A program made the translations under genes and the position numbers. From Pseudomonadota bacterium (GTDB lineage: Bacteria; Bdellovibrionota_B; Oligoflexia; Oligoflexales; CAIMVM01), in assembly GCA_037142195.1 (NCBI GenBank), contig JBAXBA010000002.1:11005-75004 (forward strand): a stretch of DNA of 64,000 nucleotides. The letters are read 5' to 3'. Positions 3,262 through 29,676 of the stretch are shown here, piece by piece (the stretch's first letter is position 1; the number at the start of each line of letters is the position of its first letter). A model generated the notes under the pieces. That model was not told where the DNA came from. It did not search any database and saw only the letters and a program-made list of their open reading frames with translations.

Positions 3262-3443
3262 AAGAAATATCCTCCAGTATCTGTTATTTTACACCAGATA
3301 CTGGAGATAAATCAATCCTTCTTTCGGCTTGCTTTATACTGACAAAAATGAGGCTGTCAGCCTCTTCCCCAAACTGCGTGACACTCTTTTTTCTAGCGGC
3401 CATTTAGCTTCCGACCTTACGGGCGAGATACTATCCTAGTTTA

Positions 3444-3746
3444 TTAAGATGACTTTTTCTTTGGCCGGCTTGATTTGACATGATCCAAAAGCACCATCCG
3501 CAGATACGGCTGGGAACCAAGGCCTTTCTCGCTAGCTAAACTTTTGAGCTGGGCGATAAGCTGCTTCGGTAATCGTACGGATATCACTTGAAGGCCCTTG
3601 GCCTCATCCATTTCTAGTTCCCTTTCGGAACTTATGGATTTAGCGTGTAGAGCGTCCGCACCTAACTCCCGCGACTCCCACTTCTCAACTGCATATTTCG
3701 GTGCAAGCCGGTCACTCAGGAAGGACCTTACTGAAGAAGGCCCCAA
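3444..3746 (-). CDS. CopG/RHH-type (BrnA-like) antitoxin, orphan copy; start uncertain
   Basis: EKWESRELGADALHAKSI..MDEAKGLQVISVRLPKQLIAQLKSLASEKGLGSQPYLRMVLLDHV is a close paralogue of 29972..30292. No toxin gene lies upstream. The 5' end runs into an AbiEi fragment. Confidence 0.5.
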   Translation of the reverse strand: MGPSSVRSFLSDRLAPKYAVEKWESRELGADALHAKSISSERELEMDEAKGLQVISVRLPKQLIAQLKSLASEKGLGSQPYLRMVLLDHVKSSRPKKKSS

Positions 3747-4449: not shown

Positions 4450-4732
4450 CAGAAACTACGAGAATAAGCTGCCCTCTATCGTCTTCCTCAAACTGGACGA
4501 CAAGCCTAACCGCATTTCCAAGTACATCCTTAGTTCTCCAGTAAAACCTCTCGCCTAAAAAATTTAGATCCCTGGTATCCTGAAATCTTCCCGGCCCTTT
4601 AACAAGCGAAAAAACTTCGGCCACCGACCATGCACGCTCTGGATGGTCAAGCAAAACATGCTCTTCGCAGACTTCAATTCGGTTTTCAGCACGCAACTTA
4701 AAAAATAACCTTTTTGCTTCGGTAAGTTTCAC
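4418..4732 (-). CDS. Small toxin candidate (DUF4258-like)
   Basis: This 104-aa ORF sits upstream of, and overlaps, the HTH gene. The segment EEHVLLDHPERAWSVAEVFSLVKGPG ... LILVVSV resembles DUF4258-type toxins. The family assignment is tentative. Confidence 0.35.
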   Translation of the reverse strand: MKLTEAKRLFFKLRAENRIEVCEEHVLLDHPERAWSVAEVFSLVKGPGRFQDTRDLNFLGERFYWRTKDVLGNAVRLVVQFEEDDRGQLILVVSVGEREHVKAR

Positions 4733-4912
4733 CCTCTTCCCTTTCTACAAGAATCTCTTCGGAGTGTCCACAGGAAACCTTTAAATGCATGCTAATCTGC
4801 TGTCATAAAACGGCAAAAAACACTTGGAAGCGTCTTTCCTTCCAGCAATCGACCCTCCCTTTCGATGGATGCATTCAGATAAAAATTGGGAGGCTAAACC
4901 TGGACAAACTCA

Positions 4913-4936
4913 TCAAGTCGTCAAGTCGTCAAGTCG
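4913..4936. repeat. 3 x 8-bp perfect tandem repeat (tcaagtcg)
   Basis: Read directly as tcaagtcgtcaagtcgtcaagtcg. It is intergenic. Confidence 0.9.
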
Positions 4937-5216
4937 AGTAAAATATCGCTACCTGAGACCAGGTTAAATGATGAAAATTTTTAAAAAAAAGAGGCGGCAT
5001 TTATATCAAAAAGAAAAGAAGCGACGGTGAGTGAGTCTACCGCTATGACTTTAGTCAAGAGGGCCTGTTGGATAGGTGTTGCCCATTCAGATGCTCTTTC
5101 ATTCAAAGCGTTAGGTTGCCTCAATTCATTCGGCCCTTATTGAGGAGAATTTGATGATTCCATCACGGTGTTTGTTATCGTCTCCTAGGATAGGATTGCA
5201 CAGGCCCATCCGACTT

Positions 5217-5951
5217 TGCTCCGCCCAAAACCATCCCTTCCAAAATTTAGTTCCAAATTCGGAATCTTCACGCTCTAGAGACTGTAATCGAAGAAGCACC
5301 TATGATTTTTTAAAAACTCTAAAACCATCTTTTTTATATCCCAGAATCCCTCTCTTCATAAACAGTTAAAATATTTAGGAAGTCACTTTGGGAAATCTCG
5401 TGAGAATCTACGTCCCAAAGATTTGATGATTTTTTTAGTCATGGGTCGCCCCATCAAGACTCCTCAAACATCACCCGCTCGAAAGTTATTATTTTGGTCG
5501 AACGGCTTCTTACCTTCTCCGCTCAGTGCTGATTTAACTCCGACAAGCTCTCCCAGTCCCAAAAGAGTAACCACCATCAATGGGCATTCCCTCTCCCTCA
5601 TGAAATAACAATGCGATCCGTAAAATCATGTTAGAAGCTGCCATTAAACGCGGCGTTTTACCCTGGCAAATAAGCTTGAAAACCAAGGTCCAAACAATCA
5701 ATCACTACTCAAACCTTTGGCGATGCGAGAATATCTGTAAAGACAAAGTATATGCCTTTATGCTAGCGGCTATCGGCAACAAATTGGTAGGGAATCGTCC
5801 TGGTCGATCTGAGCCCAGAAAAAGGAAACGAAGACCAAAACCCTCTAAAATTCTACATTGCAAAAGAAATGCTACTCGGGTAGATGCAGTGCCTGTACGC
5901 AAAAACCTAGAAAACCTGCAGTTAAAATTCGCTCAAACCAATGCGCAGTAA
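5217..5951 (+). mobile_element. Decayed IS4-type DDE transposase remnant (copy R1, most complete; C-terminal ORF 5628..5951)
   Basis: The ORF 5628..5951 ends in VGNRPGRSEPRKRKRRPKPSKIL, a typical IS4-family C-terminal tail. The same frame upstream reads NAIRKIM just after a TGA. Further upstream, broken frames give LYPR..LF.N and F.GKS.EN..R-like pieces. Left-hand parts recur at 10776, 12701, 27878 and 30719. Confidence 0.5.
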
Positions 5952-6062: not shown

Positions 6063-7394
6063 TTACTTCTTAATGTATTTCGTATTCTTGCCTTGTCCTA
6101 TTCGCTGAAGAATTCCCCGGCTTACGAGTTCAGACAAGGTGAAAGAAGCAGTTCGATCAGAAACTCCAGCAAGAACTAAATCGCGCTTATTTACTTCGAT
6201 TTTTTCCTGGAGAATCGCTAGAGCGGTTTCGACAGGCGATATCTGAGCTGAAAATACTTTTTTTCGGAACAGTATCACCTTAAAGCTCTTTGCCTGTTCC
6301 AAAAAGTTGGGATGCTGCAGATGGGCTGCTGCCAGGGCTCTTCTTGCTTCAAGAATTCCACTTCCAAGTTTTTCCATGAGCCTCAATTTACGTGCGAATT
6401 TTGTAATATGAATATTTCGAATCTGACTAGTACCATCACCTAAACTCTGAGCATAAATCGATGGCGGTAGCTCCCCTGGACTAAAGATTTCCAGTCGATC
6501 GTCGAAAATAGCAATTTTGACTGGACCAGCAATATTGTATTTTCTGTGAATTAGCGCGTTCAAAATCAGCCCCCTAAGCGCTAGCTCAGGAAAACATTCT
6601 TCTGGCCCGAATTTAACATGGTTCCTCAAGGTATAGTTAGAAGAGGTATATTCATTAATAAGCGAAATGGCCTCGTTCGACATCTTTCCCAAATTTCCAG
6701 ATAAATCATGTGACCTCACTATATCTCTGCCTGTGATTCCTCTAAATTTAGTGACAATAATTTCACTCTCGGGAACAAAACGTTGTGGCTCTAATCCGTA
6801 TACCATTAGCGCAGCCAGTGTCGGATAGTAGTCACCTGAAATGTCCTTGGCCAATACTCCCTCTCGTTCTAGATCTTTTTCAGAATACCCAGAGTAGATC
6901 TTTTTTAGCAGAGTCTGGTCTAAGTCTTTGATGCTTGCTTCATGAGAAGGAACTCGTGCGTCAAAGGGCTTCTCAAATGCTTGGAGCAGGAGGAGTTCTT
7001 TAAGGTCGTCCTCGGCTGGGCGAAGGGTTGAACGACCTGAACGAACATATACTCCTTGTGTAGATCCCTCGCTTTTCAAGAAATAGGGCTTGGCATTTCC
7101 CTGACTGACTTGTACTTCGAGAATATTTTTTCCCTATATATTTCTTACCAAAAGATTAGGAATAAGAAATGGATAAATAGATTGCGCGATTGTATTGCTG
7201 AACTCTTCCAAGAAATGATTTAGATCGTCATCACCTATCCCAACAATCTCACCGTCGTCCGAGACGCCTATAAATATGCTGCCACCTGATGTATTTGCAA
7301 ATGCGGCACAAGTCTTAAGGATTCCAGCTGAGGGCGTAAAATCTCGTTTGAATTCGCAATTTTTTCCCTCTGCATTAGGCATTAAAAATGTCAT
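6063..7394 (-). pseudogene. COG2865 'RecG-like' regulator (AlbA_2/Schlafen-like + HATPase_c_4 + wHTH) interrupted by one in-frame TAG
   Basis: The two track ORFs (7134..7394 and 6063..7079) are in the same frame. Read-through gives ..LLVRNI*GKNILEVQVSQGNAKPYFLKSEGSTQGVYVRSG.., colinear with the intact paralogue 22548..23897. The TAG is at 7134..7136. Family motifs are ILKTCAAFANTSGGSIFIGV and LRGLILNALIHRKY. Confidence 0.8.
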
Positions 7395-7495: not shown

Positions 7496-7678
7496 TATGC
7501 CCGCAGGGTAAAATCGGACTTTTTAAAATATCAATGGTTTCAGTATATTAAACCATCTTAAACTAAGTTCTTTACACTCGGTAGATTGCCATTCGATATT
7601 TGGCCGCATTTAAATGCTAATTCTTAAATCGCGATGGATGGCTTTTGCGCGGCGCTGAGACCGAACGTTTGAGGCGTC

Positions 7679-8851
7679 TCAGAAATATTTATCAAATCCA
7701 CCTTTCCACAAGACTTCGATAAAATCTCGGTAATAGTAGTTTTCTACATCTCCATAGGGACTGAGCTTTGTGATAGTATCTCGAGATACAACTATTGCCT
7801 TTCTTATTTTTGGCTCTATTTTTAAAAGCGAGCTGATGCTTTTAAAATGCCTGCTATTGAGGCGTTCGCTTGATTTTACCTCGATAGCAAAGGTCTCACC
7901 TAAAATAAAATCTACTTCTGATCCAGATTTCGTCCTCCAATAATTCAAACTAAGATTCAATTTTCTCGTATATGAAATGTAAGCTCGGAGCTCTAGTGCA
8001 ATAAGTTGCTCAAATTGATCGCCAAATTCCTTTGATTCTAGTTCGAGTGTAGAAAAACCTGCTAGATAATAGGAGACTCCACAATCAAAAAAATAGAATT
8101 TTGCCGTTGCTACTTGCTTTCGGCTTTTTAAACTATGTGCCGGCTCAACTTCAAATGCGATTAAAGTGTCTTTAAGAATCTGAAAATACTCTTTCGCCGT
8201 TGGACCACTAACCCCAGCGTCCGATGCAAATTGGGCATAGTTGACTTGTTGTCCATTGCAGAGAGCCGCACTTTTTAAAAATCGAGAAAAGGATTGTAGC
8301 TGTCGAATCTCGGATTCTCTTTGAATTTCTTCTTTCAAATACTCGCCACAATAGGCAGCAAGCTCTTCAAGAGGTTCGTCGGATAAGAAAGTCATGGGAA
8401 GACTTCCAAACTGTAATACTCGATTCAAGTCAAAATCATTTCCAACCTCATGTATAGTCAAGGGGAAAAGTTCGGCTCTTCTTGCTCTCCCACCAAGTAA
8501 ATTAGATTGATTTTTAAATAGCTTTCGAGCACTGCTACCTGTTAATAGAAAATGAAGCTTTGAGTCGATAGAGACTAATCGATGCACCTCATTGAGAATA
8601 TCAGGGATTCTTTGTACCTCATCAATGACCACTAATTTTTTGTCCGCTATCATTTGGCTAAGGTAAGTATTGTCTTGGAGTAGCCTCTGGTAAACTCTAT
8701 CGTCCAAAAGATTTATAAGACAAAAGTCTTCACCGGCGAAACAATCTGCGATGAGCGTGGATTTGCCAGTACCTCTTGCACCAAAAAGAAAGTGGCTTCT
8801 TTTTTTCAATAGTTCAAGTAGGTTAACGGACCTTTGGAATTTTCTAGTCAT
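7679..8851 (-). CDS. COG1373/DUF4143-type AAA+ ATPase with PD-(D/E)xK-like C-terminus
   Basis: This 390-aa ORF has Walker A GARGTGKST, Walker B VVIDEVQ, TGSSARKL and the C-terminal segment GSEVDFILGETFAIEVKSS. Confidence 0.85.
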   Translation of the reverse strand: MTRKFQRSVNLLELLKKRSHFLFGARGTGKSTLIADCFAGEDFCLINLLDDRVYQRLLQDNTYLSQMIADKKLVVIDEVQRIPDILNEVHRLVSIDSKLHFLLTGSSARKLFKNQSNLLGGRARRAELFPLTIHEVGNDFDLNRVLQFGSLPMTFLSDEPLEELAAYCGEYLKEEIQRESEIRQLQSFSRFLKSAALCNGQQVNYAQFASDAGVSGPTAKEYFQILKDTLIAFEVEPAHSLKSRKQVATAKFYFFDCGVSYYLAGFSTLELESKEFGDQFEQLIALELRAYISYTRKLNLSLNYWRTKSGSEVDFILGETFAIEVKSSERLNSRHFKSISSLLKIEPKIRKAIVVSRDTITKLSPYGDVENYYYRDFIEVLWKGGFDKYF

Positions 8852-9049
8852 ATATAAACCTCTACTTTAGATTATAGGGCAAATAATAAACTTTGGGTTT
8901 ACTATTTTGCAAGATCATAAATGAGAACCTCTAATTCTTGGTTGATTATCAGGCAAGTACATGAATTTACTTAGTTTTTTATAGGCCCTGCTTTGAAGAC
9001 AATCAGTTGGGTAAAGCATGAGTAGAATCCTTATGGACTACCAAGATTT

Positions 9050-9089
9050 AAAAAGTCCCGACCTTTTTGGAGTACGGTGTAAAATAGGC
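9050..9089. repeat. Half-copy of the 62-bp palindromic element at 29606..29667
   Basis: aaaaagtcccgacctttttggagtacggtgtaaaataggc compares with aaaaagtcgcgacttttttggagtacggtgtaaaataggc at 29628..29667. It lies 213 nt upstream of the ATPase start. Confidence 0.85.
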
Positions 9090-9222
9090 GTATTGGGTTT
9101 TAAATCCCGTTAAATAAAAAGCTATTTGCGCTATATAGCGGTTCAAACCTATCGAAATCGCCACATGAAACTTATACAAACCTTTGTATGTGCTTTTTGT
9201 ACATTTCCCACTTCTTCGATGC

Positions 9223-9409
9223 TAGGGACAATGCTTCAGAGCCAATAAATACATCACACCAGAATCTATGTAGTCCGGCCATGCGGCGCCACTGAAACGA
9301 AAGTTGTTCAACTAGGCGAGAGAACTCGAAAATTAGGTTCGTCTCCGGCTTATGCATTCTTGTGCAATTAGCCTTGCCTTGTGCATTCTTGTGCAATTAG
9401 CCTTGCCTT
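9223..9409. repeat. ~190-bp repeat Q (copy 1), ending in 2 x 29-bp tandem units (9352..9380 and 9381..9409)
   Basis: It is colinear with 22311..22505 (cttcagagccaa.aaatacatcacaccagaatcta...ggcgccactgaaa...ttcgtctccggctt.tgcattcttgtgcaatt). The tandem unit is (a/g)tgcattcttgtgcaattagccttgcctt. Confidence 0.85.
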
Positions 9410-10775: not shown

Positions 10776-10940
10776 CACCCATGATTTTTGAGAACTATAA
10801 AACCTTCCTTTTTGTATCCCAGAATCTATCTCTTCAAAAATAGGTAAAATATTTGGAATGCCATAGCATTAGTAGCAATCTCGTGAGAATCCACGTCCCA
10901 AAGATTTGATGATTTTTGAAGTCATGGGAGATCCCATCTT
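10776..10940 (+). repeat. IS4-type remnant, copy R2
   Basis: cacccatgatttttgaga.ct.taaaacc.tcctttttgtatcccagaatct.tctcttcaaaaa.aggtaaaatattt ... gtcccaaagatttgatgattttt is shared with R1, R4 and R5. Confidence 0.7.
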
Positions 10941-10969
10941 TACTCATTCACCAGCACTCGATCAAATGC

Positions 10970-11959
10970 TCAAGGTAAGGAGAGCCCATTAATCTTAAAT
11001 TCAAGAGTTTTGATTTGGCTCAGGAGATCGGAGAAATCAGGAATTTCGCCATAGATCATGACTTGCATTTCTCTGTAGTCTCTTTCTAGCGAAGAACGTA
11101 TGTGTTCAGGGGGCAAGAGCCGCATAGTTCCAGGTTTGGCGAGATCATATCGGGCCCAGCCGCGAGGATAAAATCGCTCTTTGGACGCGACAACAGATGC
11201 AAGTAAACTGAGATCGCTAAAAGCTGCCTCCTTTACGGGGGATTGGGCTAAACGCGCAAGATCATAGTAATGGCGCGAATAGCGATCCGGTTGAGTGTTT
11301 CCCTCTGGACGAAAGGCTTCATGGTGAAGAATAGTTGCCTTTTCCCAGAAAGTTCGTTCGGCCTTTATGCACTGCACATGGCATGTCTTCCTGTTGAATA
11401 CATTCGGGAATTCCTCAGCACAGTAAGGTGTAATTTCATATTTTTCATTTGGTGTCCATATCGCCAATGGTCCGATTTCTAATCGTATCTCAGGCCTGAT
11501 GTAAGTCTCAGCGAAAGAAGCTGGGTATTTCACAGAAATGACATTTGGGTCTTTTGGGTCAAGTTCAACCTTGACAACCGGCGCAAGGAGCTGAATACAT
11601 AACGGTAGTAGCTGGTCCCGAATATAATCCTGTGCTGCTACTTGTAACTGTTTGTTGAATTGATCCTGTTTTGTTCTTGATCTCTTTGCCTCAGGGTCTT
11701 CGTTGGTTATTTCCTTCCAATCGAGGATGAGGTCTATATCTTCAGAGAAACGCTCGATAAGTCCAAACACTTTGGAAAGTGAAGTGCCGCCCTTGAACAA
11801 GATTTTTCGTGCGAGGCTAGGATCGTCAAAGAGTTTCGCAATTGACCAGCACACCCAGAAGTCTTTTTCAGCGATGGCATTCGATAGGCCACGTCGGGTG
11901 GCGGTTTCACGAAAAAGTTCAGCACGATCTTTAGCTGGTAATGTCGCTATTTTATCCAT
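10970..11959 (-). CDS. abiEii: AbiEii-family nucleotidyltransferase toxin
   Basis: The start is taken at MDKIATLPAKDRAELF (ATG 11959), which overlaps the abiEi stop (TGATG). Family motifs are AIAEKDFWVCW and FKGGTSLSKVFGLIERFSEDIDLIL. Confidence 0.85.
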   Translation of the reverse strand: MDKIATLPAKDRAELFRETATRRGLSNAIAEKDFWVCWSIAKLFDDPSLARKILFKGGTSLSKVFGLIERFSEDIDLILDWKEITNEDPEAKRSRTKQDQFNKQLQVAAQDYIRDQLLPLCIQLLAPVVKVELDPKDPNVISVKYPASFAETYIRPEIRLEIGPLAIWTPNEKYEITPYCAEEFPNVFNRKTCHVQCIKAERTFWEKATILHHEAFRPEGNTQPDRYSRHYYDLARLAQSPVKEAAFSDLSLLASVVASKERFYPRGWARYDLAKPGTMRLLPPEHIRSSLERDYREMQVMIYGEIPDFSDLLSQIKTLEFKINGLSLP

Positions 11960-12700: not shown

Positions 12701-13140
12701 TCTTTGATTTTTGTCTACTTTAAAACAATGCATTTTATATCCCAAAGCCGCCCTTTCCATAACAGGTAAAATATTTGTAAAGATATGACGCTTGTAGGGA
12801 TCTCATTTAAGCCAACTTCCATGATATTAATTAGTATTGCAATAGTGAGAGCTGAACCTTTAGTCTTTCAGTAGCATTCGATATAAAGTTACTATTTGGA
12901 CCAAACTCCGATCGTTCTCTACGCTCAGCAGTGATTTGGCATTAGCAAAATCCCTTTAATCTCAAAAAAGAACCACTATCAATGGGCATTCCCTCTCCCT
13001 CATGAAATAACTCATACTCCTTGGAATCACTCCACCCATCAGAGCAAAACCTGAAGACCTTCATCCATTGCCAGAGCTGCGGCTTTCAAAAGACTTTCCT
13101 CGTAGTTTGAAGATTGATTTCAGAATCGATAGTGTCAGCT
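12701..13140 (+). repeat. IS4-type remnant, copy R3 (diverged homologue of ~30800..31319)
   Basis: It is colinear with R5 at roughly 80% identity by eye (ttttatatcccaaa, aggtaaaatattt, aagttactatttgg, ccttggaatcactccacccatcagagcaaaacctgaa). Confidence 0.7.
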
Positions 13141-13521
13141 AGAGGGCATATAGTGGCCTTAAGTTCTGGGGGTGTCATGGAAGTGGTCCGTCAGAGCTGG
13201 CTTAGGATCTAGAAAAAGAGGAGGACATATGCCTTTTGGATCAGAAATTTTAGGCGGTATTTTAGTTGGCCTTGGCATGGCTATAACGCTCTTATATGAA
13301 AGTCAGATTTCAGGAGCGTCGGGCTATGCAGCGGCGAGCTTAAGACCAAGTCCTACCGGAAGAGCGGAGCTCTATTTTGTCGCAGGTCTCGTTTTGGCAG
13401 GGCTGATTTGGCGGTTTGCGGGAGGTCATCTGAGTGATGCTGATGAGAGTCATCTCGGAATTCCAGCCTGGATTCTTGCTGGGCTATTGGTGGGCTTTGG
13501 AGCCCGCTTAGGAGGAGGCTG
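13141..13521 (+). repeat. Near-perfect direct repeat of 31320..31699 (yeeE leader + first 98 codons)
   Basis: A base-by-base reading finds one extra G (ctggggg vs ctgggg) and two substitutions (ggaattcc/ggacttcc, ttcttgct/ttctagct) in 381 bp. Identity ends after ggaggaggctg. Confidence 0.95.
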
Positions 13522-13528
13522 TATTTAG
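13229..13528 (+). pseudogene. Truncated duplicate of the yeeE/yedE-like gene (first ~98 codons)
   Basis: It has the same RBS and ATG as 31407 (aggaggacatATG) and an identical protein up to ..GFGARLGGGC. It then diverges into I-stop instead of the conserved TSGHGVCG. Confidence 0.85.
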
Positions 13529-13574
13529 AAAATCTTCAATGATCAACAAAGCAAATCTAAACTGGCTTGCACTG

Positions 13575-15563
13575 CTAACTTATTTCGTTAATTCTAGGTA
13601 TCACTGTCTTCACAGCTGCTCCGGCTTGCAGAAGCAATCTAAGAAGCTGCGCATGCGCTATGGGTTTTGGTATGAAACTATCAGCTCCAGACTCAATTGC
13701 AAACTTGTTATCGGCAGCAACGATGCGGTTTGAATGGATACAAATAAGTGCCTTGGAGCCACGGCGCCTCAACTCGGCAACGAGTTCAAAGCCATTCAAA
13801 GACATTTTGCCCATGTCAACATCAGTGACTATGAAGTCATAGTCATGGTTTGTGATAGCTTGTAAAGCTTCAATCGAACCATCGGCCTGAGTCAATTCTA
13901 ACGCCTTACTTAGTTCCGGCGTTCTCATCATATGTGATGCAAGCGCACTTCGGTAGATGGGCTCATCGTCTACAATCAATACCCGCAAAGGACGACCGAT
14001 GGATGAATGCGCGAGCAAGACATCTTCTTCCAATGATAATTCACCCTTATCGATACTTGTTGAGGCTTGAATTTTTTCCGTAAGCAGTGTCAACTGCTTT
14101 GCTATGTCAGAACTGTGCTGCGGCAAACTTGCCGTGGTGGCATTGAGTTGGTTGGCAGTAGGCAACGTAAAGAAAAACTCAACCTTGCCCTCAGGGTGTT
14201 CTGACGTCTTACTCGATTCGCACCAAATCTTGCCACCGTGAGCATTTACTACCTTTTGTGCAATGGCCAGTCCAAGGCCTGTGCCGCCCTTTTTGCCGCT
14301 AGTAAAAAAAGTATCAAAAAGCTTAGCTAGATTTTCTTCTAGAATCACAGAGCCTTCATTACCAATACAAAAAGTAATCATTCCTTTTGATTCCAAAGTC
14401 TTAAACCACATCGATCCTTTGTACCTCATCTCCTGGAAAGCATTGTCCACGATGTTAGAGAACACGCGGCTGATTTTTTGGACATGAACGTATGCCAAGT
14501 GAGTGTGTTCAAAGTCGTAAGAGAATGAAATTTTAGCGTCAGGATAAATTCGAACAACGTCCCCAAGAGTCGATTCAATTATAGATTCAGGGCTTACTGC
14601 CTCTTGTATCAACTTAACCGAGGATGACCCAATCTCCATTACGTCAGCAAGCATACCATCAACACCAATCATAGCACTGTCAATCTGGGGAACGACGCGA
14701 GACATCACCTTTTTCACACTTTCAGGATCTTTGGCATTGCCAAGCATCGCAAGACCGATACGCAACATGGTTAAAGGCTTGCGGACGTCGTGGGCTAACA
14801 TTTGGGTGGTGCGGGCAATTGCCTCATCAGTGCGTGCTTGAAATTTAACTTCGGCCTTTTCAGCTTCGCTTAGGCGAATAGCAATTGCAAGCTCACCGAT
14901 TTCGCGAGCAAGTCTTCGAATGACTGTAACCAGGCGCATTTCTTCTGACGAGCTCGGATTCTTAGGGCTCTGTGCCGTCTTGACAGTCTCGTGATTTCTT
15001 ACAGGATCGCTAAGGATCTGATCAGCGAGAGCTTCAATAGCAGAGATAGCTCGATCCAGGTTCGAAAACTCATTTTTCATCGTGTGTCGTACTGAAATCA
15101 GTATCAAGGAACAAAGTACTAGCAAGCTAAGGCTAATCAAGCCAATAACGTGAATAGTTGGTTCCACCCAAGCAGATCTATCCACAAAAAGATGGATAAC
15201 ACCCCAGCTAGTTCCCATCTCATCAAGAACCGCTACGGTCTCATGGGGGCCTTCGGTGGCACCAATATTGCAAATTTCGACGCCTTGCTGATTATTGACC
15301 TTAACCCCAGTAAATAAACCAGTTTCCAGCGCCATACGCATTGTGTTTTTAATTGGCAAGCTATCGGATGATATTAAATGACTGACGATATTATTTGGAA
15401 GTGATGCCCGCCAGGTGACAATTTGGCGAGACTGAAACGACTGAACTGTGACCCCGATACTGAAACCAGCAATAATAATTACTAATATAGACCCTAGTAA
15501 TGCTTTAGGAGCGATGGCTCGCATTAATTTTGAATAAATGCTACTTAAGGAGTGAGAGCTCAT
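13575..15563 (-). CDS. Hybrid sensor histidine kinase (2 TM + periplasmic loop, HisKA, HATPase_c, C-terminal receiver)
   Basis: Motifs read: H-box MLAHDVRKPLTML, N-box NIVDNAFQE, G-box GGTGLGLAIAQKVVNAHGG. The receiver has VLIVDDEP ... FIVTDVDMG ... FIPKPI. Two hydrophobic segments flank a ~110-aa loop. Confidence 0.9.
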   Translation of the reverse strand: MSSHSLSSIYSKLMRAIAPKALLGSILVIIIAGFSIGVTVQSFQSRQIVTWRASLPNNIVSHLISSDSLPIKNTMRMALETGLFTGVKVNNQQGVEICNIGATEGPHETVAVLDEMGTSWGVIHLFVDRSAWVEPTIHVIGLISLSLLVLCSLILISVRHTMKNEFSNLDRAISAIEALADQILSDPVRNHETVKTAQSPKNPSSSEEMRLVTVIRRLAREIGELAIAIRLSEAEKAEVKFQARTDEAIARTTQMLAHDVRKPLTMLRIGLAMLGNAKDPESVKKVMSRVVPQIDSAMIGVDGMLADVMEIGSSSVKLIQEAVSPESIIESTLGDVVRIYPDAKISFSYDFEHTHLAYVHVQKISRVFSNIVDNAFQEMRYKGSMWFKTLESKGMITFCIGNEGSVILEENLAKLFDTFFTSGKKGGTGLGLAIAQKVVNAHGGKIWCESSKTSEHPEGKVEFFFTLPTANQLNATTASLPQHSSDIAKQLTLLTEKIQASTSIDKGELSLEEDVLLAHSSIGRPLRVLIVDDEPIYRSALASHMMRTPELSKALELTQADGSIEALQAITNHDYDFIVTDVDMGKMSLNGFELVAELRRRGSKALICIHSNRIVAADNKFAIESGADSFIPKPIAHAQLLRLLLQAGAAVKTVIPRINEIS

Positions 15564-16768
15564 AGTATACCTCTACGCCTTACCAATGCTGGAAACAATA
15601 CGAACATCTGCAAGACTCCTGCTGTTATAAAAAGTAAAGGAAGTGCGTTTAAAGAATAAGCGCCAATAACTACAAATGGAGATAAAGCCATTGCAATCCC
15701 TGATGCTACGCTGGTCATGGACACTGCCCTAACCTGTTCGCCTAGTGATGCTGCCTTTAGAATGAGGTCATCTCTTCGACTAAGAACACCTAGCTCCATG
15801 CCTATTCGCGCCAAAAGTATCATTAAAATTATGGTGACAATTTGATCCGAATCCCCAATCAGATAAAGTAGAAATCCGTTTGGAATCAAGAAAAAAGATG
15901 CAACAGCCCGAATAGATTTGATACCCCAAATATTCCTATATGCGAGGTTGGCTAAAAATATAGAGGTAGCCTCGATCGCCCAAAACGCCCCCCGGAAGGA
16001 ATCTGGCAGCACAGTAAGCGGGACAAAAAAGGAGTTGGAAGATGCAATCAGGGGGATAATAGCCACACATGCATATGACAATACGACGAATAATAGATAG
16101 ATCAGCATACTCGAGTCCGTGAATAGGCCAAATTTTTCTGCCGATTTGGAGCCGCCATCGCTCTTCGTCGCCTGGCTTCCCCAATCGCCATTCTTAAAGA
16201 ATTTGGTCTGCGGCAGCAAAATTGCGGCGACCAAATAGGTTGCTAAATCAAAGCAAAGCACGCCTTGCCATCCACCGAAGTGCTCAATGATTGGCCATGA
16301 TAGACCTGCAAGCAAAAAAGATATTGCCGCAATAGTACCGCGTAGTGCCTGCGACGATTTGAATTTATGCTCATCACTTTCAACTCGCCGAAAAATGACG
16401 GTGATAACATTGTTCAACACTACTGAAGGTATCGCTGAGGCAACTATCACAGCAACCGACAAGCCAGGTTGCTTGAACCATAGGGCTAAACCTAACAAGA
16501 CATTGCAAAGTACGCCGATAATTTGCGACCCCAATACAGAAGTCCGACCTCCTAAATGGAGCGACAAACCAGATCCAGCCAGGACCAAGGCAGACACACA
16601 AAGAGTTTTTAAACTTAATGCGATTGCCACCGCCTCAAGTCCGCCGCCTATGACCCCAACTGTTTTGAATCCTACAAAGGATGTTAAATTGGTGCCAAAA
16701 TTAGTCAATCCGAGAAGTAAAAGCATAGCCAAACGCTCATTATTTTTCACTTTATCATCCGCGTTCAT
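15560..16768 (-). CDS. MFS-type transporter
   Basis: This 402-aa ORF is almost entirely hydrophobic, with ~12 predicted helices. Its ends overlap the neighbouring genes by 4 nt and 14 nt. Confidence 0.7.
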   Translation of the reverse strand: MNADDKVKNNERLAMLLLLGLTNFGTNLTSFVGFKTVGVIGGGLEAVAIALSLKTLCVSALVLAGSGLSLHLGGRTSVLGSQIIGVLCNVLLGLALWFKQPGLSVAVIVASAIPSVVLNNVITVIFRRVESDEHKFKSSQALRGTIAAISFLLAGLSWPIIEHFGGWQGVLCFDLATYLVAAILLPQTKFFKNGDWGSQATKSDGGSKSAEKFGLFTDSSMLIYLLFVVLSYACVAIIPLIASSNSFFVPLTVLPDSFRGAFWAIEATSIFLANLAYRNIWGIKSIRAVASFFLIPNGFLLYLIGDSDQIVTIILMILLARIGMELGVLSRRDDLILKAASLGEQVRAVSMTSVASGIAMALSPFVVIGAYSLNALPLLFITAGVLQMFVLFPALVRRRGIL

Positions 16769-17999
16769 ATACTAGGAAGTGCCTTCCGACTTCTTTTGCT
16801 ACCAACTCAATCCTTTTCAGATTATGGGATTTCAATAGATCATCGTATTCGCTAAGTGTTCTCTCTTTGCCACCAGCTTGAAGTAACATATTGAAATCGT
16901 AACCTGCGTTCTTTATACGATCATCTTCTAAGGGGCGTTCTAAGACAATGATCTTTCCTCCTGGCTCAAGGTAAGCCAGAGCATTGCGAAGAATAGAATC
17001 GCAGGTTAAATCGTCCCAATCGTGCAAGATCCAGCCTAGGATAAGACAGTCAAAGGCTTCCAGTTGTGTTGAAGTTGAAGCTTTCTCGTGTTGAACTGTA
17101 AAATCCTGATAGAAACGCCGAATGTTCAAGTCATCCGCTCCACATACTGTAGTGCGAAGCTTTTGCAAAGAGAATTGGGTGGAGGGGTGATCCATTACCG
17201 TGAAGTCCGCTGGTCTCAAAAAAATTGACTTGCATGCCAACATCACTTGGCCTATGCCACCACCAACATCGAGAAATTTTGTCGATCCTGTTTTTTCCAA
17301 ATAATCCGCTAGCTCTAGGTTACTTTGCCAATTAGAGAATGCAAACGTCAAGGCATGAAGGGCCATCAGATCATCCGGTTTGTCGTAGTGATCAAAAAGT
17401 CGAGTTGAAGAAAGTTCAAAGGCAACATCAGCGACACTTCCACCACGCTCTAAACCGAGTAAAATACAGTCATTAGTCATTGCTCTGCGAACTACATGTC
17501 TGTAGAAAGTAAGCGTCATCAAATTTGAAGCCTCATAAAATAGATTTGGCTCGTTCTTATAAAGTAGACTTAGGGATCCTGCAAAAGAGATTATCTGATC
17601 GACATAGGATATGATCGCCCCCAGTGAGCTCTCACTTTCAATCTCAGATTTTAGCCATTGTATAAGTTCCGTTTGAGCATAAGTTTCGCGACGATGTTCA
17701 GTCATCTTAAAAGCTATTCCAGTTGAAGTTTTTTCGAGCATGCACATGCCTGATTCAACAAGAGCATTTAGCATTCTCTGGCATGCCTCCAATTTCCATC
17801 CGAAATGGGCGGCTAGATCTGATGCAAAAAAACGAGCCTGCACATAATCTCCCGCTGTTGCGGCCTTTAAGTACTTTTCAATTCGAGGTTTTGCAAAGTC
17901 TTCAATTCTAATAAGAACAAATATCCGCAAGTCATCGCGATCAAGTTTTTTACTCCATTTCTGGTAAGTCTCCAGAATAGGCTTATCTATTATTTGCAA
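16755..17999 (-). CDS. SAM-dependent O-methyltransferase, family 2 (COMT-like) with N-terminal wHTH/dimerisation region
   Basis: Motif I is FLDVGGGIGQV. The C-terminal part ILGWILHDWDD...YLEPGGKIIVLE...FNMLLQAGGKERTLSEYDDLL is typical of Methyltransf_2. The TTG start follows GAGGTG. Confidence 0.8.
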   Translation of the reverse strand: MQIIDKPILETYQKWSKKLDRDDLRIFVLIRIEDFAKPRIEKYLKAATAGDYVQARFFASDLAAHFGWKLEACQRMLNALVESGMCMLEKTSTGIAFKMTEHRRETYAQTELIQWLKSEIESESSLGAIISYVDQIISFAGSLSLLYKNEPNLFYEASNLMTLTFYRHVVRRAMTNDCILLGLERGGSVADVAFELSSTRLFDHYDKPDDLMALHALTFAFSNWQSNLELADYLEKTGSTKFLDVGGGIGQVMLACKSIFLRPADFTVMDHPSTQFSLQKLRTTVCGADDLNIRRFYQDFTVQHEKASTSTQLEAFDCLILGWILHDWDDLTCDSILRNALAYLEPGGKIIVLERPLEDDRIKNAGYDFNMLLQAGGKERTLSEYDDLLKSHNLKRIELVAKEVGRHFLVYERG

Positions 18000-19522
18000 G
18001 CATCACCTCGAGAAATTTTTTCAAGATAAGAAAATGAATTGGGACTAATGAGCACCCCGGAGAGACTATTTGGAATTTGAATACAGCTCTTTACGAAATT
18101 TACATGCCCTACATGATACATCGGTATCATGATAGATTCCTCGAAAATATCCCGGTCAAGTTCGCGATAGATCTCAAAGCGATCACTTAGATTAGGCAGT
18201 CCCATAGCGCGATGCAATAAATCAACATATAGAGGCTTAGTGTAAAAAAAGAATAGATTACCATCGCCTGGCAAAAATCTTCTAAAAACGGCGCCAGCAT
18301 CCCTAGATGGAAATAGAAAAAGTTCAATGTATGCAGCAGTTTTTGGGTGACCTTCTCTAGGACTCATCTCTGCATAGCTCTTCTCATATTGAAAATTTGC
18401 CTGAAGCCCCACACTTGCCATGGCCTTTGTAATACGCTCTTGATCACATGTGGATGCACGTCCTATGTGTTCGTAAATGGTTACAATTGAGTCTGCCGCC
18501 GACAACTTGGGAAAACTAAGAGCCTTTTGTGTAGACGATATATTAGGTTTTTTGTTAAGGCTTCCACCTATACCGGGTGGGATAAAGCCAATTGCAGATG
18601 TGGTCCCTGGGGAGCACTGTTCGATCTTTTGTATGTCGCTAATTTGGCGGTGAAGCTCCTGCCTTCTATTTTTGTCTTTAAATGCTGCAAATTTTGGGTT
18701 GACCACAAGAGTTTGGGTAACAGACGCAGAGTGAAAGTGCTTATTATAGGCTGCAGAGTGAATTTTAGCTCCCGTGGAGGATAGATACATAGCCGCGACA
18801 TCGACCGTGCCTGCGTCTAATGTTTGGGCAATATTTTTTTCATCGTAATAGCGAAAAGTAATTTTATCATGTTTCGCTTCTTTGGGGGTTCTCTTCATGA
18901 ATTCGTTGGGCACGACTGTAGCCTCATTGGCTAATTTGGAGTCGACCCGGTAGGGACCACTTCCAATAGTTGATCCATTTGAAGCAATTTTGAATACAGA
19001 AACGTTCAGAGATGCTATTCGATACAAAAAACTACTTGGATCAAACTTTAATTGAAAAATCACCGAAGTTCGGTCCGTAGACTCCCTGATTCCCACAGCA
19101 TTTGAATTGCCCTCAATACACCCAGCCAAATCATCTAGAAGGTCACGAATGCGACTTTCCTTCGAGCACAGAATCTGAAATGAACGAACGATGTCTGCAG
19201 TGGTAACATTACTGCCATCAGAAAATTTATGCTTAGGGCGAATGACAACGCTCAATTCCTTATGTGATCGATCGAATGTCCATGATTCAGCTAATTCAGG
19301 GGCAATCGCACCATCCTCATTCAACTTAAAAAGTCCTTCATAGATGAGTGACAAAATAAAACGTTCCTGAGCGATAGCAACTTTTTGCGGCTCAGTATTT
19401 AGGATAGGATTTGGTATGGCAACAAGCAAATTGTCTTGACCTTGTTTTTTAGCCAACGCAGCGCTGGAAATAAAATAGAATACCCAAATCACGAACAATT
19501 TTTTTCGGCTAAACATCCTCAT
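17990..19522 (-). CDS. Periplasmic solute-binding protein, family 5 (OppA/DppA/NikA-like), orphan
   Basis: It has a Sec signal peptide (MRMFSRKKLFVIWVFYFISSAALA). The family-5-like body includes LVAIPNPILNTEPQK, LFKLNEDGAIAPELAESW and GSGPYRV. No permease or ATPase genes are nearby. Confidence 0.75.
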   Translation of the reverse strand: MRMFSRKKLFVIWVFYFISSAALAKKQGQDNLLVAIPNPILNTEPQKVAIAQERFILSLIYEGLFKLNEDGAIAPELAESWTFDRSHKELSVVIRPKHKFSDGSNVTTADIVRSFQILCSKESRIRDLLDDLAGCIEGNSNAVGIRESTDRTSVIFQLKFDPSSFLYRIASLNVSVFKIASNGSTIGSGPYRVDSKLANEATVVPNEFMKRTPKEAKHDKITFRYYDEKNIAQTLDAGTVDVAAMYLSSTGAKIHSAAYNKHFHSASVTQTLVVNPKFAAFKDKNRRQELHRQISDIQKIEQCSPGTTSAIGFIPPGIGGSLNKKPNISSTQKALSFPKLSAADSIVTIYEHIGRASTCDQERITKAMASVGLQANFQYEKSYAEMSPREGHPKTAAYIELFLFPSRDAGAVFRRFLPGDGNLFFFYTKPLYVDLLHRAMGLPNLSDRFEIYRELDRDIFEESIMIPMYHVGHVNFVKSCIQIPNSLSGVLISPNSFSYLEKISRGDACK

Positions 19523-20811
19523 GCCAATGCACCCTCGACTGTTTTAGTCTCGTCTTCATCAAGTTGTTCGCGTAGTTCAGGGTTTTCTATTATCATAAGT
19601 GCAATTTCCCTCTCCTTGGATATCTGTTTTGACTCACCATATAGCCTAGTCAGCTCGATAAGTGGACTTAAAGCTAAATTGTCAGCTTTTGCAGATGCTA
19701 GAAATGACCGTTCAGCAGCGCCCAGGTCTCCTAAGTTTTTTTCACATTGCCCCTGTAGATGTAAGTTCATGGCCGTGGCAGGAGGACCTAATGATGCTGC
19801 TTGTTTAAAATGAACGAGTGCTTTTTCGTGATTTTTTATTTTGCAAAAATGCAAACCTAATTCGCTATGGGACGTTGAGTCATAGGGATCCAAATGAGAC
19901 ATTTGTGAAAAGGCTGCGACCGCTTGATCTGTATCATTACGTGAGAGGTAGAGCTTAGCAAATGATTGCCACAAAGTGGCTTGTAACTCATCTCGAAGTG
20001 TGGACCAAGGTTTATTCTCAGTGTTGATCATTTGAGAGGCTTGTAGAGCACGATCCATTAACTTTAGGACTGAGTCGTACGACAATCCTGGTGTCATGGC
20101 AAGACCCCTTAAAGCTGTCGACCACTTGAGGGCTTGCCCCCAATCTTTTGGCGAAAATTTGAGCCAACTGTCGAGATTGGAAAGAATCGCAGCTGCGTGT
20201 TTACGAGCGTGAATCTGGCCGCGTTCGAATCGGGATGACACGACTACAATGCGTGCTATAAGCGAAATATGTTCGAGCAGTAAGGCATTATCAACGGTGG
20301 AAGCCATCTCGGCAAGATTTTCAAGTTTGCTAAACGAAGCTGAAATGCCAAGATCTAAATCTAGTATTTGGAAAAGAAGTGCTCGTTGGCTTTCGTATTT
20401 GAAGAATATAGTTGAACTTGCATCTGTGGACTTAAAAGCTCGAATTTCTTCTATAAGTCCATATCGAGCAAGCACAGCCATCAAAGGAATTAGAACGGAA
20501 TCTACGTGATAAGAGTCACAAGGTAAATGTGCTACAGATGATGCAGCATCCGCCAGTCGCTTTCGAAATGACTTTAGTTCGGTGGCAGCTTCCGCATTTT
20601 CTAATCGATCTATTTCGTGAAAAAATTCCGGGTTTGGAATTCTTTGGGGAAATGAAATGTCTTTTGCGCGCCCAGCAAGTAATCCCTCGATTCCATTTAC
20701 GTGAGACCAAAACCAGGCAAAGAACTCGGAATTCCGAGTGGAATAGGAGCTCGAATATCCGCAATATCCAGGCGTAATATTTGAAAAATTCGCATTTATT
20801 AAAGGCAACAA
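19519..20811 (-). CDS. TPR-repeat protein, first gene of the operon
   Basis: This 430-aa ORF has C-terminal TPR-like repeats (AVAAFSQMSHLDPYDSTSHSELGLHFCKIKNHEKALVHFKQAASLGP...). The TTG start lies 6 nt after GGAGAG. The stop overlaps the SBP start. Confidence 0.6.
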   Translation of the reverse strand: MLPLINANFSNITPGYCGYSSSYSTRNSEFFAWFWSHVNGIEGLLAGRAKDISFPQRIPNPEFFHEIDRLENAEAATELKSFRKRLADAASSVAHLPCDSYHVDSVLIPLMAVLARYGLIEEIRAFKSTDASSTIFFKYESQRALLFQILDLDLGISASFSKLENLAEMASTVDNALLLEHISLIARIVVVSSRFERGQIHARKHAAAILSNLDSWLKFSPKDWGQALKWSTALRGLAMTPGLSYDSVLKLMDRALQASQMINTENKPWSTLRDELQATLWQSFAKLYLSRNDTDQAVAAFSQMSHLDPYDSTSHSELGLHFCKIKNHEKALVHFKQAASLGPPATAMNLHLQGQCEKNLGDLGAAERSFLASAKADNLALSPLIELTRLYGESKQISKEREIALMIIENPELREQLDEDETKTVEGALA

Positions 20812-21225
20812 ATACTCTCCATTTAGTCTTCAGTCTATGAGAGGAATTTTGGGTTCAGGAAGGGGGACTGTAGTCCCCCTCTTGGCTATTGCCATGCTCC
20901 TACCGGTATTACTTTTAAGTACCTGCGTAGTTTGCGCCGGCAGCTTTCCGTTTAGACTTAAACATTATCATTCTCCTTTCTGTTTTCCCATTGTTTGACT
21001 TGAGGTCTTTCATGCACTGAGCTGGTGTTTCGCTGGCCCATAAATTGAGGCCTTTGAAAGCTGAGTACTTTGAAAAACCGCAAAAACTCACAACGATCCA
21101 AAGGCAATCTCCGTGCCACTAGTTTTTTCACTGGCAACCCCTCGAAACCACGTCCAAACCTAGTATAGCGGGTGCTCCAAAACTCTAAATTCGTCCCGGC
21201 CGTGGTACAAAATCTTTTCATTTGC

Positions 21226-21468
21226 CTAGAATATGGGCAAAAGTGGTAAATAAATGGACCCACAGGGATAAGCGAGGCCATCAAAGACTAGGCGATCCGA
21301 TATGTCTTTCGGAGAATCCTCAAGCAAGGCCTTTAAAACTCCAAACACGGCGTAATCTTTCCATACTATTTCACTGGAAATCCCCAGCGCATCTGCAGTA
21401 TTCAAAGTGGCATCATGGATTTTTTCATCTAAAAAGAGTGAGCCAAAGTTGGACATTAGGGACTCCAT
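21226..21468 (-). pseudogene. N-terminal fragment (~65 codons) of an AbiEii toxin gene
   Basis: SSEIVWKDYAVFGVLKALLEDSPKDISDRLVFDG matches the AbiEii N-terminal pattern (EKDF..L..L.....LVFKGGT). It then breaks off, and the NTase core (SEDIDF) is absent. Confidence 0.55.
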
Positions 21469-21483
21469 CCGGAAGATATTTGG

Positions 21484-22146
21484 TCAATTCAAATGAAAAA
21501 CAAATTCCAGATTCCTAATGGCTTTCCGCCCCTTCTGACCACCAAGACGTGTACATATATCGCGCAAGCAACTTCGACTTATGAAGTTGATTTTAAGGAA
21601 GCGCTTAAAGCCAAGAGCTACCTCAGCACTCGATTCATTGCCTATTTTGTCAAGAGAGACGAGTGCTAGATATGACTTGAGCTCGCTATCGCTTAAATCC
21701 TGGTACTTCTCCATTGGCACCGTAACAACCTTCAAGGCTTTCGAATTTCCAGGAAAACGCACGGGAGCTATAAATGATTTCTGTACTGGAACTTGGGTGG
21801 TTAAAGCCATCTCATAGAAAAGCGTTGCTCCCACGGGTATCAATCGGTTGATTCGAATACGCTCATTCCCAAACGATGCTTGATCACGGGCCCGCTTCTC
21901 CAAAAGAAGCTTTTGCAAAACCGCCTCATCCGAAGCACGACTTGGGCCTACCAACGTCTCCTTAGGAAGGTAATACATTCCCCTGGAGTAGCGCTTGATC
22001 TTCGACTGAGCCTCCAAGCGGGAAAGTGCCCGCTGCACTGTGCCTGCTGAAAAGCGAGGAATCGCCACATCCCTCCAGCTGAAAACTGACCCTGATTTAA
22101 ATTCTCTTATTTTATTGAGGACTTGACGAGAACACAAACCGCGCAT
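21484..22146 (-). CDS. AbiEi-family antitoxin-like protein (partner toxin truncated)
   Basis: The N-terminus VFSWRDVAIPRFSAGTVQRALSRLEAQSKIKRYSRGMYYLP fits the AbiEi wHTH pattern. It lies 15 nt upstream of the AbiEii fragment. Confidence 0.6.
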   Translation of the reverse strand: MRGLCSRQVLNKIREFKSGSVFSWRDVAIPRFSAGTVQRALSRLEAQSKIKRYSRGMYYLPKETLVGPSRASDEAVLQKLLLEKRARDQASFGNERIRINRLIPVGATLFYEMALTTQVPVQKSFIAPVRFPGNSKALKVVTVPMEKYQDLSDSELKSYLALVSLDKIGNESSAEVALGFKRFLKINFISRSCLRDICTRLGGQKGRKAIRNLEFVFHLN

Positions 22147-22310
22147 GTTAAATTCCCCTATACTCTTATATATCCGAATAGTTACTATCGGTTTTGTCTA
22201 AAAATAATTTAATTAGATTCAGTCAAAAAGTGAGATAATATATTATTTTTATTGATTTATTAGTCTCGTTCAAAAGAGAGAACGTTGTTCCAGATAACTG
22301 GTTAATTATT

Positions 22311-22505
22311 TAGGGGCAATACTTCAGAGCCAACAAATACATCACACCAGAATCTAAGCAGTCCGGCTATGGGGCGCCACTGAAAGAAAGTTTTTCAACT
22401 AAGCGCGAACTCGAAAATGAGCTTCGTCTCCGGCTTGTGCATTCTTGTGCAATTGGCCTTGCCTTGTGCATTCTTGTGCATTATGATCTCCCTTGTGCAA
22501 TTAGC
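22311..22505. repeat. ~190-bp repeat Q (copy 2), forming the upstream region of the intact COG2865 gene
   Basis: It is colinear with 9223..9409. It contains three cttgtgca(a)tt-type direct repeats at ~22435-22505. Confidence 0.85.
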
Positions 22506-22547
22506 AGTGACGAATTTCTAGAAGGGCATACTGGAAAGGAATCTTCG

Positions 22548-23897: not shown

Positions 23898-24069
23898 CGG
23901 TAATGGTGCCAGCTGCCAAAAAAATCTCGCCTTGCAATCGCGTATATCATGGGCGAACAAGTAATCTTTAGCGACTTCTGAAACGACATGACGTTTCCGG
24001 CTGCTTTTAGAAAGTGGGGAAATGGCGACACGCCTAAAGGGATTATTAAGATAATATGAGGTGAAAAAT

Positions 24070-24498
24070 ATGATACGAAGTGAAACAGAATATCAAAAAG
24101 CTATTGGGCGAGTTAAGAATGAAAAAGAACTCATTGAAAAAGCCAAAAAAAATCTAAAAAACAAAGGGTTAAAATCAAAAGAAATAGAGAGAGCTTTAAA
24201 CCCCTTGCTGTCTTTCACAGCGCAGTTAGAAGAAGAAATAGAAACCTACGAAAAAATTAAAAGAGGTGATTTCGAAACCATTGAAAACTTCGATGGATTA
24301 GGTCGATCTTTGATTGCCTTACGTATAAACAAAAATATGTCCCAAAAAGATCTGGCGGATAAACTAAAAATTGCAGAGTCGCAGATTTCTCGTTATGAAA
24401 AGAATGAGTACCGAGGCATTTCCATGGAACGAGTCAACGAAATATTAAACGCTCTTCATGCAAAAGCGGTTACAAAATTTGAAATTCTTGTGGCTTGA
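24070..24498 (+). CDS. HigA-like XRE-family HTH antitoxin, apparently orphan
   Basis: The ATG lies 6 nt after GAGGTG. The N-terminal IRSETEYQKAIGRV helix and the C-terminal HTH (NKNMSQKDLADKLKIAESQISRYEKNEY) fit the family. Only short broken ORFs lie upstream. Confidence 0.65.
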   Translation: MIRSETEYQKAIGRVKNEKELIEKAKKNLKNKGLKSKEIERALNPLLSFTAQLEEEIETYEKIKRGDFETIENFDGLGRSLIALRINKNMSQKDLADKLKIAESQISRYEKNEYRGISMERVNEILNALHAKAVTKFEILVA

Positions 24499-29667: not shown

Positions 29668-29676
29668 GATTTTGCC

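Follow-up and report, generated by a model that had tools for sequence, protein, structure and literature searches.

The 64,000-nucleotide stretch of DNA analyzed here (the window) covers positions 11,005 to 75,004 of the 94.7-kb contig JBAXBA010000002.1 in assembly GCA_037142195.1, a metagenome-assembled genome (MAG) of an uncultured bacterium placed in the class Oligoflexia, and it contains two copies, in direct orientation, of the 5' part of a yeeE gene. The right-hand copy belongs to an intact gene (31407 to 31817, plus strand; MEI8024955.1), a YeeE/YedE-family open reading frame (ORF) of 136 amino acids for which the NCBI protein name is YeeE/YedE thiosulfate transporter family protein. 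Its match to the Pfam family Sulf_transp (E = 2.2e-7, 31.2 bits) is just over the 27-bit cutoff. The protein has the conserved CTSGHGVCG motif and its neighbor matches DUF6691 in Pfam, which is the small two-gene form of YeeE/YedE. The DUF6691 gene (31814 to 32221) and a TauE/SafE gene (32218 to 33027), both recognized with Pfam, follow on the plus strand from 31814 to 33027 and make up, with yeeE, a complete conserved operon. Gene order is conserved rightward from DUF6691-TauE/SafE, where Pfam identifies sugar-nucleotide and polysaccharide genes. A JGI 79-kb contig has, like the window, the order yeeE-DUF6691-TauE-epimerase-transketolase halves-epimerase-NTP transferase-DegT, and two other relatives, L083 and L087, confirm the yeeE-DUF6691-TauE order only.

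The left-hand copy is a truncated ORF, yeeE' (13229 to 13528, plus strand; MEI8024939.1), that is annotated in the source MAG, starts with an ATG at 13229, and ends after 99 amino acids with ..RLGGGCI-stop. The left copy stops after GGAGGAGGCTG, and the right copy goes on from there with GGGCTSGHGVCG. A first-pass annotation of the window had recognized the truncated ORF, ending ..GGGC-I-stop, and the intact gene at the right copy, and both are as it described them. It had also placed a kinase operon and several toxin-antitoxin modules between the two copies, which Pfam scans bear out, together with defense-type modules. The kinase operon (13575 to 20811, minus strand) encodes, by Pfam, a hybrid histidine kinase, an unknown protein of 402 amino acids, an O-methyltransferase, an SBP_bac_5 protein, and a TPR protein.

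We checked the repeat by pairwise alignment, a repeat scan, BLAST of the window against itself, and a mismatch map. Self-BLAST aligned 12958 to 13521 with 31133 to 31699 at 93% identity over 568 bp (E = 0), the two copies being spaced 18,178 to 18,179 bp apart. Within this alignment lies a near-identical tier, 13131 to 13521 against 31310 to 31699 (391 and 390 bp, both on the plus strand), in which only 3 of 391 positions differ, for a copy-to-copy identity of 99.2%. The differences are one G in a G run at 13164 to 13168, A/C at 13460, and T/A at 13477, and the stretch from 13169 to 13459 is 100% identical to 31347 to 31637. The same three differences had been noted earlier for 13141 to 13521 and 31320 to 31699; the tier is slightly longer and begins at 13131. 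The left tract comprises 98 bp of yeeE promoter and 5' untranslated DNA, 97 codons, and 2 bases of codon 98, and the right tract comprises the same part of the intact yeeE locus. As argued below, they are the putative recipient and the putative donor, respectively, of a gene conversion. A sigma-70 promoter-like match at 13126 to 13154 scored no better than shuffled controls.

Identity between the copies drops sharply at 13130/13131, with 15 differences in 13056 to 13130 against 3 in 13131 to 13521 (Fisher p = 2e-10). The adjoining upstream region of about 440 bp had been described as 80% identical throughout. The lower identity is real, but it is not uniform. Instead, the mismatch map showed a mosaic: 80% identity in 13056 to 13130, no difference at all in 13019 to 13055, 67% in 12958 to 13018 (20 differences), and only about 73% between 12705 to 12802 and 30801 to 30899, a stretch that is part of a dispersed repeat family. 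A 76-bp insertion is present in the right copy. The yeeE-proximal part of this second tier, 13019 to 13130 on the left and 31198 to 31309 upstream of intact yeeE on the right (both plus strand), was also compared with the relative L090, described below. The left sequence is 86.6% identical to the right one and 82.1% identical to L090, and the right sequence is 90.2% identical to L090. With seven left-specific and three right-specific states, the left sequence represents a third allele. The region corresponding to 31198 to 31309 is present twice in L081, another relative.

Relatives of the locus were sought in several ways. Exact-protein look-ups of the window yeeE, yeeE', and DUF6691 products gave no match, even though these proteins have entries in the cluster database. 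A scan of genome contigs was dominated by the universal CTSGHGVC motif, and the relatives that it returned were all at 52% identity or less; a DNA-pattern scan of metagenomes yielded six relatives, of which L087 is close and the other five are distant. The closest homolog of the kinase (97% amino acid identity) led to L090 (GCA_040396915.1) and L091, and a cluster-mate of that homolog led to L092, L093, and L094.

In the window, the left yeeE copy breaks off at 13521/13522, where codon 98 is joined to the 3' flank of the kinase operon. The same junction is found base for base in L090, L091, L092, and L093, which derive from four samples or assemblies, as ..CGCTTAGGAGG(A/C)GGCTG|TATTTAGAAAATCTTCAAT.., or ..CGCTTAGGAGGCGGCTG|TATTTAGAAAATCTTCAAT... 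It can also be read as ..GGCTG|TATTTAGAAAATC.., and it adjoins the same kinase operon in all four of these related metagenome assemblies. The position of the break is ambiguous by at most 3 nucleotides, since L083 and L087 have TGT-ACC and the bases GTA can be assigned to either side. The presence of this junction in four related assemblies indicates that it is inherited and shared, and not the product of a recent insertion in the window genome. L090 is collinear with the window from 12705 to 22125, at 95% identity overall. Outside this block, L090 has sequence like window 4618 to 5609 before it and an AbiEii module like window 10778 to 11927 after it, and the left breakpoint falls within a copy of the dispersed repeat. 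A recent insertion had been one proposal of the first-pass annotation; at the left junction it is contradicted by these relatives, which have the same structure and have diverged independently. A Chi-like motif at the break (GCACCAGC) was considered and dropped, as it does not match Chi of Escherichia coli. Chi sequences vary between species.

The junction is old, and the two copies of yeeE that the window carries are too similar to be equally old. On the right side of the junction, identity between the window and L090 is 95.0% in 13522 to 13900 and 97.3% in 13901 to 16000, whereas over the 391-bp tier it is 82.5% (69 differences in 395 positions, against 19 in 379 in the flank; Fisher p = 3e-8). 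At the same time, the two window copies are less divergent from each other than the flanks of the window and L090 are (3/391 against 19/379; p = 3e-4). The left copy thus resembles its partner in the same genome (99.2%) far more than its positional ortholog in L090 (82.5%). Synonymous divergence (dS) follows the same pattern. Between the window and L090-type sequences, dS is 0.055 to 0.088 for the kinase, SBP, and TPR genes and 0.34 for the fragment compared with window yeeE, and between the two window copies it is 0.013. Since the duplication is older than the split of the lineages and the copies are younger than that split, one copy must have been overwritten by the other, a pattern that classically marks gene conversion. 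Window-type bases reach to within 6 bp of the junction (GGAGGAGGCTG in the window, GGAGGCGGCTG in L090), indicating that the overwritten tract extends to the end of the homology.

The nature of the divergence is informative as well. Compared with window yeeE, the truncated fragments show ratios of nonsynonymous to synonymous divergence (dN/dS) of 0.10 to 0.19 (0.18 for the fragment at the shared junction), the same as the intact orthologs of L083 (0.19) and L087 (0.16), which indicates that the divergence accumulated in functional genes. This suggests that each fragment tracks the working yeeE allele of its own genome, with the window providing the direct case. The fragments themselves are not maintained as genes, given that an in-frame stop is found at codon 23 in L090, L091, and L092, though not in L093, and at codon 78 in L082; yeeE' is without evident function. 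Both window copies lack 3 bp relative to other yeeE genes (..RPSPTGRA.., 136 amino acids), whereas all relatives examined encode 137 amino acids with ..RPNNPSGRA... On sequence grounds, this lineage-specific deletion, common to both copies, favors an intragenomic source. Of the explanations put forward by the first-pass annotation, a recent gene conversion of the yeeE-proximal part is thus the one that the discordant identity and dS values support.

We consider it quite probable that an old yeeE 5' fragment, created by an illegitimate rearrangement, has recently been overwritten by the intact yeeE gene through gene conversion. The locus is a rearrangement scar of the ordinary sort, subject to concerted evolution, and adds one more example of a familiar type of event. 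In this history, an old tandem duplication or single-crossover insertion would have joined a 3'-truncated yeeE to the kinase operon before the window genome split from the lineage of L090 to L093, and the junction would have moved with the kinase operon as a block ever since. Homologous recombination between dispersed repeats would then have shuffled the surrounding cassettes, leaving the block in different neighborhoods in different genomes. Later, RecA-type pairing of the fragment with the intact yeeE 18 kb away may have led to a nonreciprocal transfer from about 13131 to the junction. The DNA upstream of 13131 would have stayed unconverted, with an older and separate history that includes the dispersed repeat. 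The transfer most likely went from the functional gene to the fragment, because the shared sequence is a good ORF. We infer that the conversion took place within one genome and that the junction arose by tandem duplication or by the single crossover of a circle carrying a 5' piece of yeeE.

In practice, the fragment presumably serves as a 391-bp substrate through which the 18.2 kb in between could be deleted or duplicated. A RecA-dependent deletion between the repeats, as the first-pass annotation had envisaged, is plausible from their length and identity, and recombination at the repeat could plausibly remove or amplify the kinase operon and several toxin-antitoxin modules. Neither a deletion product nor a circle was seen in the data available.

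Several observations weigh against this history. The intact yeeE of an L090-type genome was not recovered, so that conversion is shown directly for the window only. Window positions 13019 to 13130 match neither L090 nor the right copy and require at least one further recombination event upstream. The two left-specific substitutions, at 13460 and 13477, are both confined to the final 62 bp of the tract, and this mildly nonrandom placement is unexplained. Two junction types in yeeE, J1 and J2, are only 9 to 12 bp apart, a mild coincidence (about 6% for a 411-bp gene) that gives weak support to some site preference. Lastly, the contig was assembled from a metagenome, and a stretch of perfect identity as long as about 290 bp might in theory have been mis-threaded. 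In such an artifact, two haplotypes, or a circle and an empty site, would have been strung together through the identical stretch at 13169 to 13459, which does exceed typical assembly k-mers in a source that is a MAG. However, L090 and L092 independently show the same order of dispersed repeat, upstream region, yeeE', and kinase operon, and the yeeE'-kinase junction is present in L091 and L093 as well. Moreover, window-type bases within 6 bp of the break mean that reads spanning the converted junction must exist. We regard a misassembly as extremely unlikely.

The first-pass annotation had also entertained the possibility that 13522 to 31699 is a site-specific integrative element inserted into the 5' part of yeeE and carrying its own replacement 5' end, the two copies being attL and attR. 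The geometry fits, the left copy being truncated and the right one intact. The repeat has a sharp end at 13521, and the independent junction types J1 and J2 lie close together in yeeE of relatives. Yet no integrase, transposase, or tRNA gene was found in the region. Pfam searches of all sizeable ORFs of 1 to 41 kb revealed no integrase, excisionase, or recombinase gene, a six-frame Pfam scan of the largest gap (25440 to 26540) gave nothing, and Rfam had no match in the window. No contig was found in which the left flank is joined to intact yeeE, as at an empty site. An identity of 391 bp far exceeds the length of an att core. The same junction occurs in a lineage whose flanks differ by 3 to 5% and whose right-hand 9 kb is different; the enclosed 18 kb is not conserved as a unit. 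In addition, relatives carry four or more further partial yeeE-locus copies, and their breakpoints differ, which is evidence against an att site. In L081 and L082, yeeE breaks at codon 95 and is followed by an unrelated module containing HipBA, and a second piece in L081 breaks in the yeeE promoter region. L095 has an intact yeeE and a DUF6691 that breaks off after codon 28, beyond which lie island-type DNA and a transposase gene of the IS630 family. The JGI contig, known from gene calls only, has an intact and syntenic yeeE-DUF6691-TauE and, 6 kb upstream of it, a 111-amino-acid ORF with a 59-amino-acid piece of DUF6691, so that the break there appears to lie near DUF6691 codon 59. No homology was found between the DNA that follows J1 and the DNA that follows J2. 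An att-like insertion is largely refuted by these findings and is very improbable.

A different way to bring a near-identical fragment next to an old junction is allelic import, in which the left flank and the fragment were replaced by DNA from another strain, one in which AbiE-DUF6088 directly preceded an intact yeeE with this allele, by a crossover at the end of the yeeE' homology. Everything to the left of the junction does differ from L090 (about 82% identity in 13019 to 13521, and other cassettes further left), and the JGI contig has AbiEii-DUF6088 directly upstream of its yeeE-locus copy. On the other hand, the donor's yeeE would have to match the resident allele exactly, down to the lineage-specific 3-bp deletion, and its upstream sequence would have to change abruptly at 13131. 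Import also merely shifts the breakpoint into the history of the donor, and intragenomic conversion needs fewer assumptions. We therefore think import unlikely.

A recent tandem duplication or Campbell-type insertion, with the 99% identity reflecting youth, would generate exactly a truncated left copy and an intact right one, and an interleaved repeat pair (9223 to 9395 and 22311 to 22480) brackets DNA that is absent from L083. This explanation is nonetheless highly doubtful, because the junction, being present in four assemblies with a kinase operon at a dS of 0.06 to 0.09, predates the 0.8% divergence of the tract, and because self-BLAST showed that the left region is not a copy of the right region. 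Such an event is contradicted for the 99% tier and is still reasonable as the origin of the ancient junction. It is also quite unlikely that the yeeE boundary is a dedicated hotspot, at which cassettes are gained by duplicative insertion at the 5' edge of a neighboring gene and are shuffled through the oriented dispersed repeat, which would serve as the site for a recombinase encoded elsewhere. Insertions of this kind would leave truncated 5' copies, of which yeeE', the Schlafen-upstream copy, and the AAA_14 5' fragment (both described below) could be examples. If true, this would be an integron-like cassette system without IntI or attC.

Gene conversion from yeeE to its fragment has precedents. 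Ectopic gene conversion and concerted evolution of dispersed repeats are known in bacteria, for example, for tufA and tufB of Salmonella and for rRNA operons. The window resembles conversion of the tufA/tufB type in that dispersed copies are near-identical while orthologs diverge, the tract ends are sharp, and the process is RecA dependent with no dedicated element. It differs in that one partner is a dead 5' fragment and in that the tract runs up to a rearrangement junction, where homology ends. In Neisseria, silent partial pilS copies donate diversity to the expressed pilE gene. There, too, truncated and expressed copies exchange sequence nonreciprocally; here, however, the expressed gene homogenizes a single fragment, and there is no sign of a variation system. 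With regard to the older junction, a tandem duplication, or a Campbell-type insertion of a circle with a gene fragment, leaves a 3'-truncated copy upstream and an intact copy downstream in direct orientation. A scar of this kind probably explains both the original yeeE'-kinase junction and the Schlafen-upstream pair. Unlike a fresh Campbell-type scar, the event is old, and the duplicated unit is unrecognizable after cassette replacement and reshuffling.

Mobile systems offer partial parallels. SXT/R391 elements are defined by a tyrosine recombinase, Int, that acts on nearly identical attP and attB sites (PMC2791158). With SXT/R391 at the 5' end of prfC, the window shares the geometry alone, as the first-pass annotation had proposed it: a conserved gene takes an insertion in its 5' part and stays functional. 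In contrast to those elements, it lacks an integrase, conserved element content, and a common core. The region is also like a chromosomal integron array in having small co-oriented toxin-antitoxin and defense cassettes beside a fixed boundary, a recurring intergenic repeat, and a strain-variable order. Unlike such arrays, it has no IntI integrase in the 64-kb window, no attC-like hairpin in the repeat of about 190 bp, and several multigene operons with their own promoters.

The locus offers a caution, in that a near-identical direct repeat around accessory genes can mimic a fresh att insertion where comparison with relatives reveals an old junction rejuvenated by conversion. As a consequence of such rejuvenation, the identity of the repeat cannot be used to date or classify islands of this kind. 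It is also a clean small case, in an uncultured bacterium, of a gene and a dead piece of itself evolving in concert. The toxin-antitoxin-rich region around it owes its rebuilding to homologous recombination between short dispersed repeats, with no recognizable mobile element at work.

The region from position 1 to about 31 kb is dense in toxin-antitoxin and defense-type genes, mostly on the minus strand, that include, by Pfam, AbiEii/DUF6088, CopG, RES/Xre, HEPN, Schlafen-AlbA_2, and three AAA_14/DUF4143 ATPases. The order of these cassettes varies among the window, L081, L082, L083, L090, and the JGI contig. Of the bracketed 18 kb, L090 is collinear with 13522 to 22125 alone; L083, L090, and the JGI contig have other arrangements of the 9 kb that remain. 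The flanks of the yeeE'-kinase block differ in L090 and in an ERZ1426826 contig. Indeed, the block (13575 to 22125) is found in at least three neighborhoods in related assemblies (L090, L092, and the ERZ1426826 contig), and it is cassette-like and movable without a mobility gene.

In L083, the intact yeeE is directly preceded by a Schlafen gene (94% identical to 22371 to 23922) and an AAA_14 gene (92% identical to 7552 to 9148), and these two genes abut each other. Compared with L083, the window has an extra 12.9 kb that holds yeeE' and the kinase operon. This DNA lies between the two copies of a Schlafen/AlbA_2-upstream repeat, 9223 to 9395 on the left and 22311 to 22480 on the right (both plus strand), that are 90% identical to each other and interleaved with the yeeE pair. 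The Schlafen-upstream repeat holds a 29-bp tandem unit, TTGTGCATTCTTGTGCAATTAGCCTTGCC. A Schlafen-like gene on the minus strand (6063 to 7079 and 7134 to 7394) is split into an AlbA_2 piece of 86 amino acids and a HATPase_c_4 piece of 338 amino acids. It is probably a frameshifted paralog of the intact Schlafen gene at 22437 to 23897.

The dispersed repeat is about 190 bp long. Its copies, five of them strong and two weak, share one orientation (plus strand for the two beside the yeeE copies) and are confined to the first 31 kb; none was found in 31 to 64 kb. The copy to the left of yeeE' (12705 to 13011, listed as 12705 to 12885 among the copies; nhmmer E = 5e-43) forms the outermost part of the region that had been called an 80% tier, and the breakpoint at which L090 departs from the window lies inside this copy. 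The copy upstream of intact yeeE (30726 to 31062, listed as 30795 to 30985) was found by the repeat scan, self-BLAST, and nhmmer. The other strong copies are at 5297 to 5483, 10776 to 10966, and 27950 to 28109, and the weak ones are at 172 to 279 and 1434 to 1545. The repeat also occurs in L081, L082, L090, L091, and L092. Each copy lies 20 to 250 bp upstream of a minus-strand operon. Pfam gave no match in the three minus-strand frames of the repeat, and RNAalifold gave no convincing structure, with consensus energies of -4.3 and -0.4 kcal/mol on the two strands. Possible identities for the repeat are a common promoter or leader, the remains of a small gene, and a substrate for recombination.

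Some further features of the region and its relatives were observed. In L095 (686 to 3884), whose YeeE is 96% identical, the IS630-family (DDE_3) transposase gene beyond the cut DUF6691 is the only transposase gene seen near the yeeE loci of the clade. Within the kinase operon, the 402-amino-acid ORF (15560 to 16768), which has no Pfam match, is present in the window, L090, and L091. Sequence corresponding to 15639 to 16750 is missing from L092, L093, and L094, where the kinase gene adjoins the methyltransferase gene, an insertion/deletion polymorphism. G+C content is 0.38 to 0.50 in the cassette region and the yeeE and sugar-nucleotide genes (1 to 39000) and 0.34 to 0.41, mostly below 0.39, in the glycosyltransferase/polysaccharide cluster (39000 to 64000).

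Partial paralogs are shared by the two sides of the cassette region. An AAA_14 5' fragment (327 to 594 and 27533 to 27801) is 90% identical between its copies, a HEPN-type pair (633 to 1418 and 25176 to 25989) is 75% identical, and a CopG pair (3440 to 3689 and 29968 to 30217) is 93% identical. Their order to the left of yeeE' roughly matches that to the left of intact yeeE, which hints at an old segmental duplication that was later overwritten. A perfect 62-bp palindrome (29605 to 29666, centered on TCGCGA) lies between an 84-amino-acid ORF and an AAA_14/DUF4143 gene (28397 to 29578). Half copies of it are found at 9050 to 9089 and at 2207 to 2246 of L083, one arm thus recurring beside another AAA_14 gene, and the palindrome could be a bidirectional terminator or an operator.

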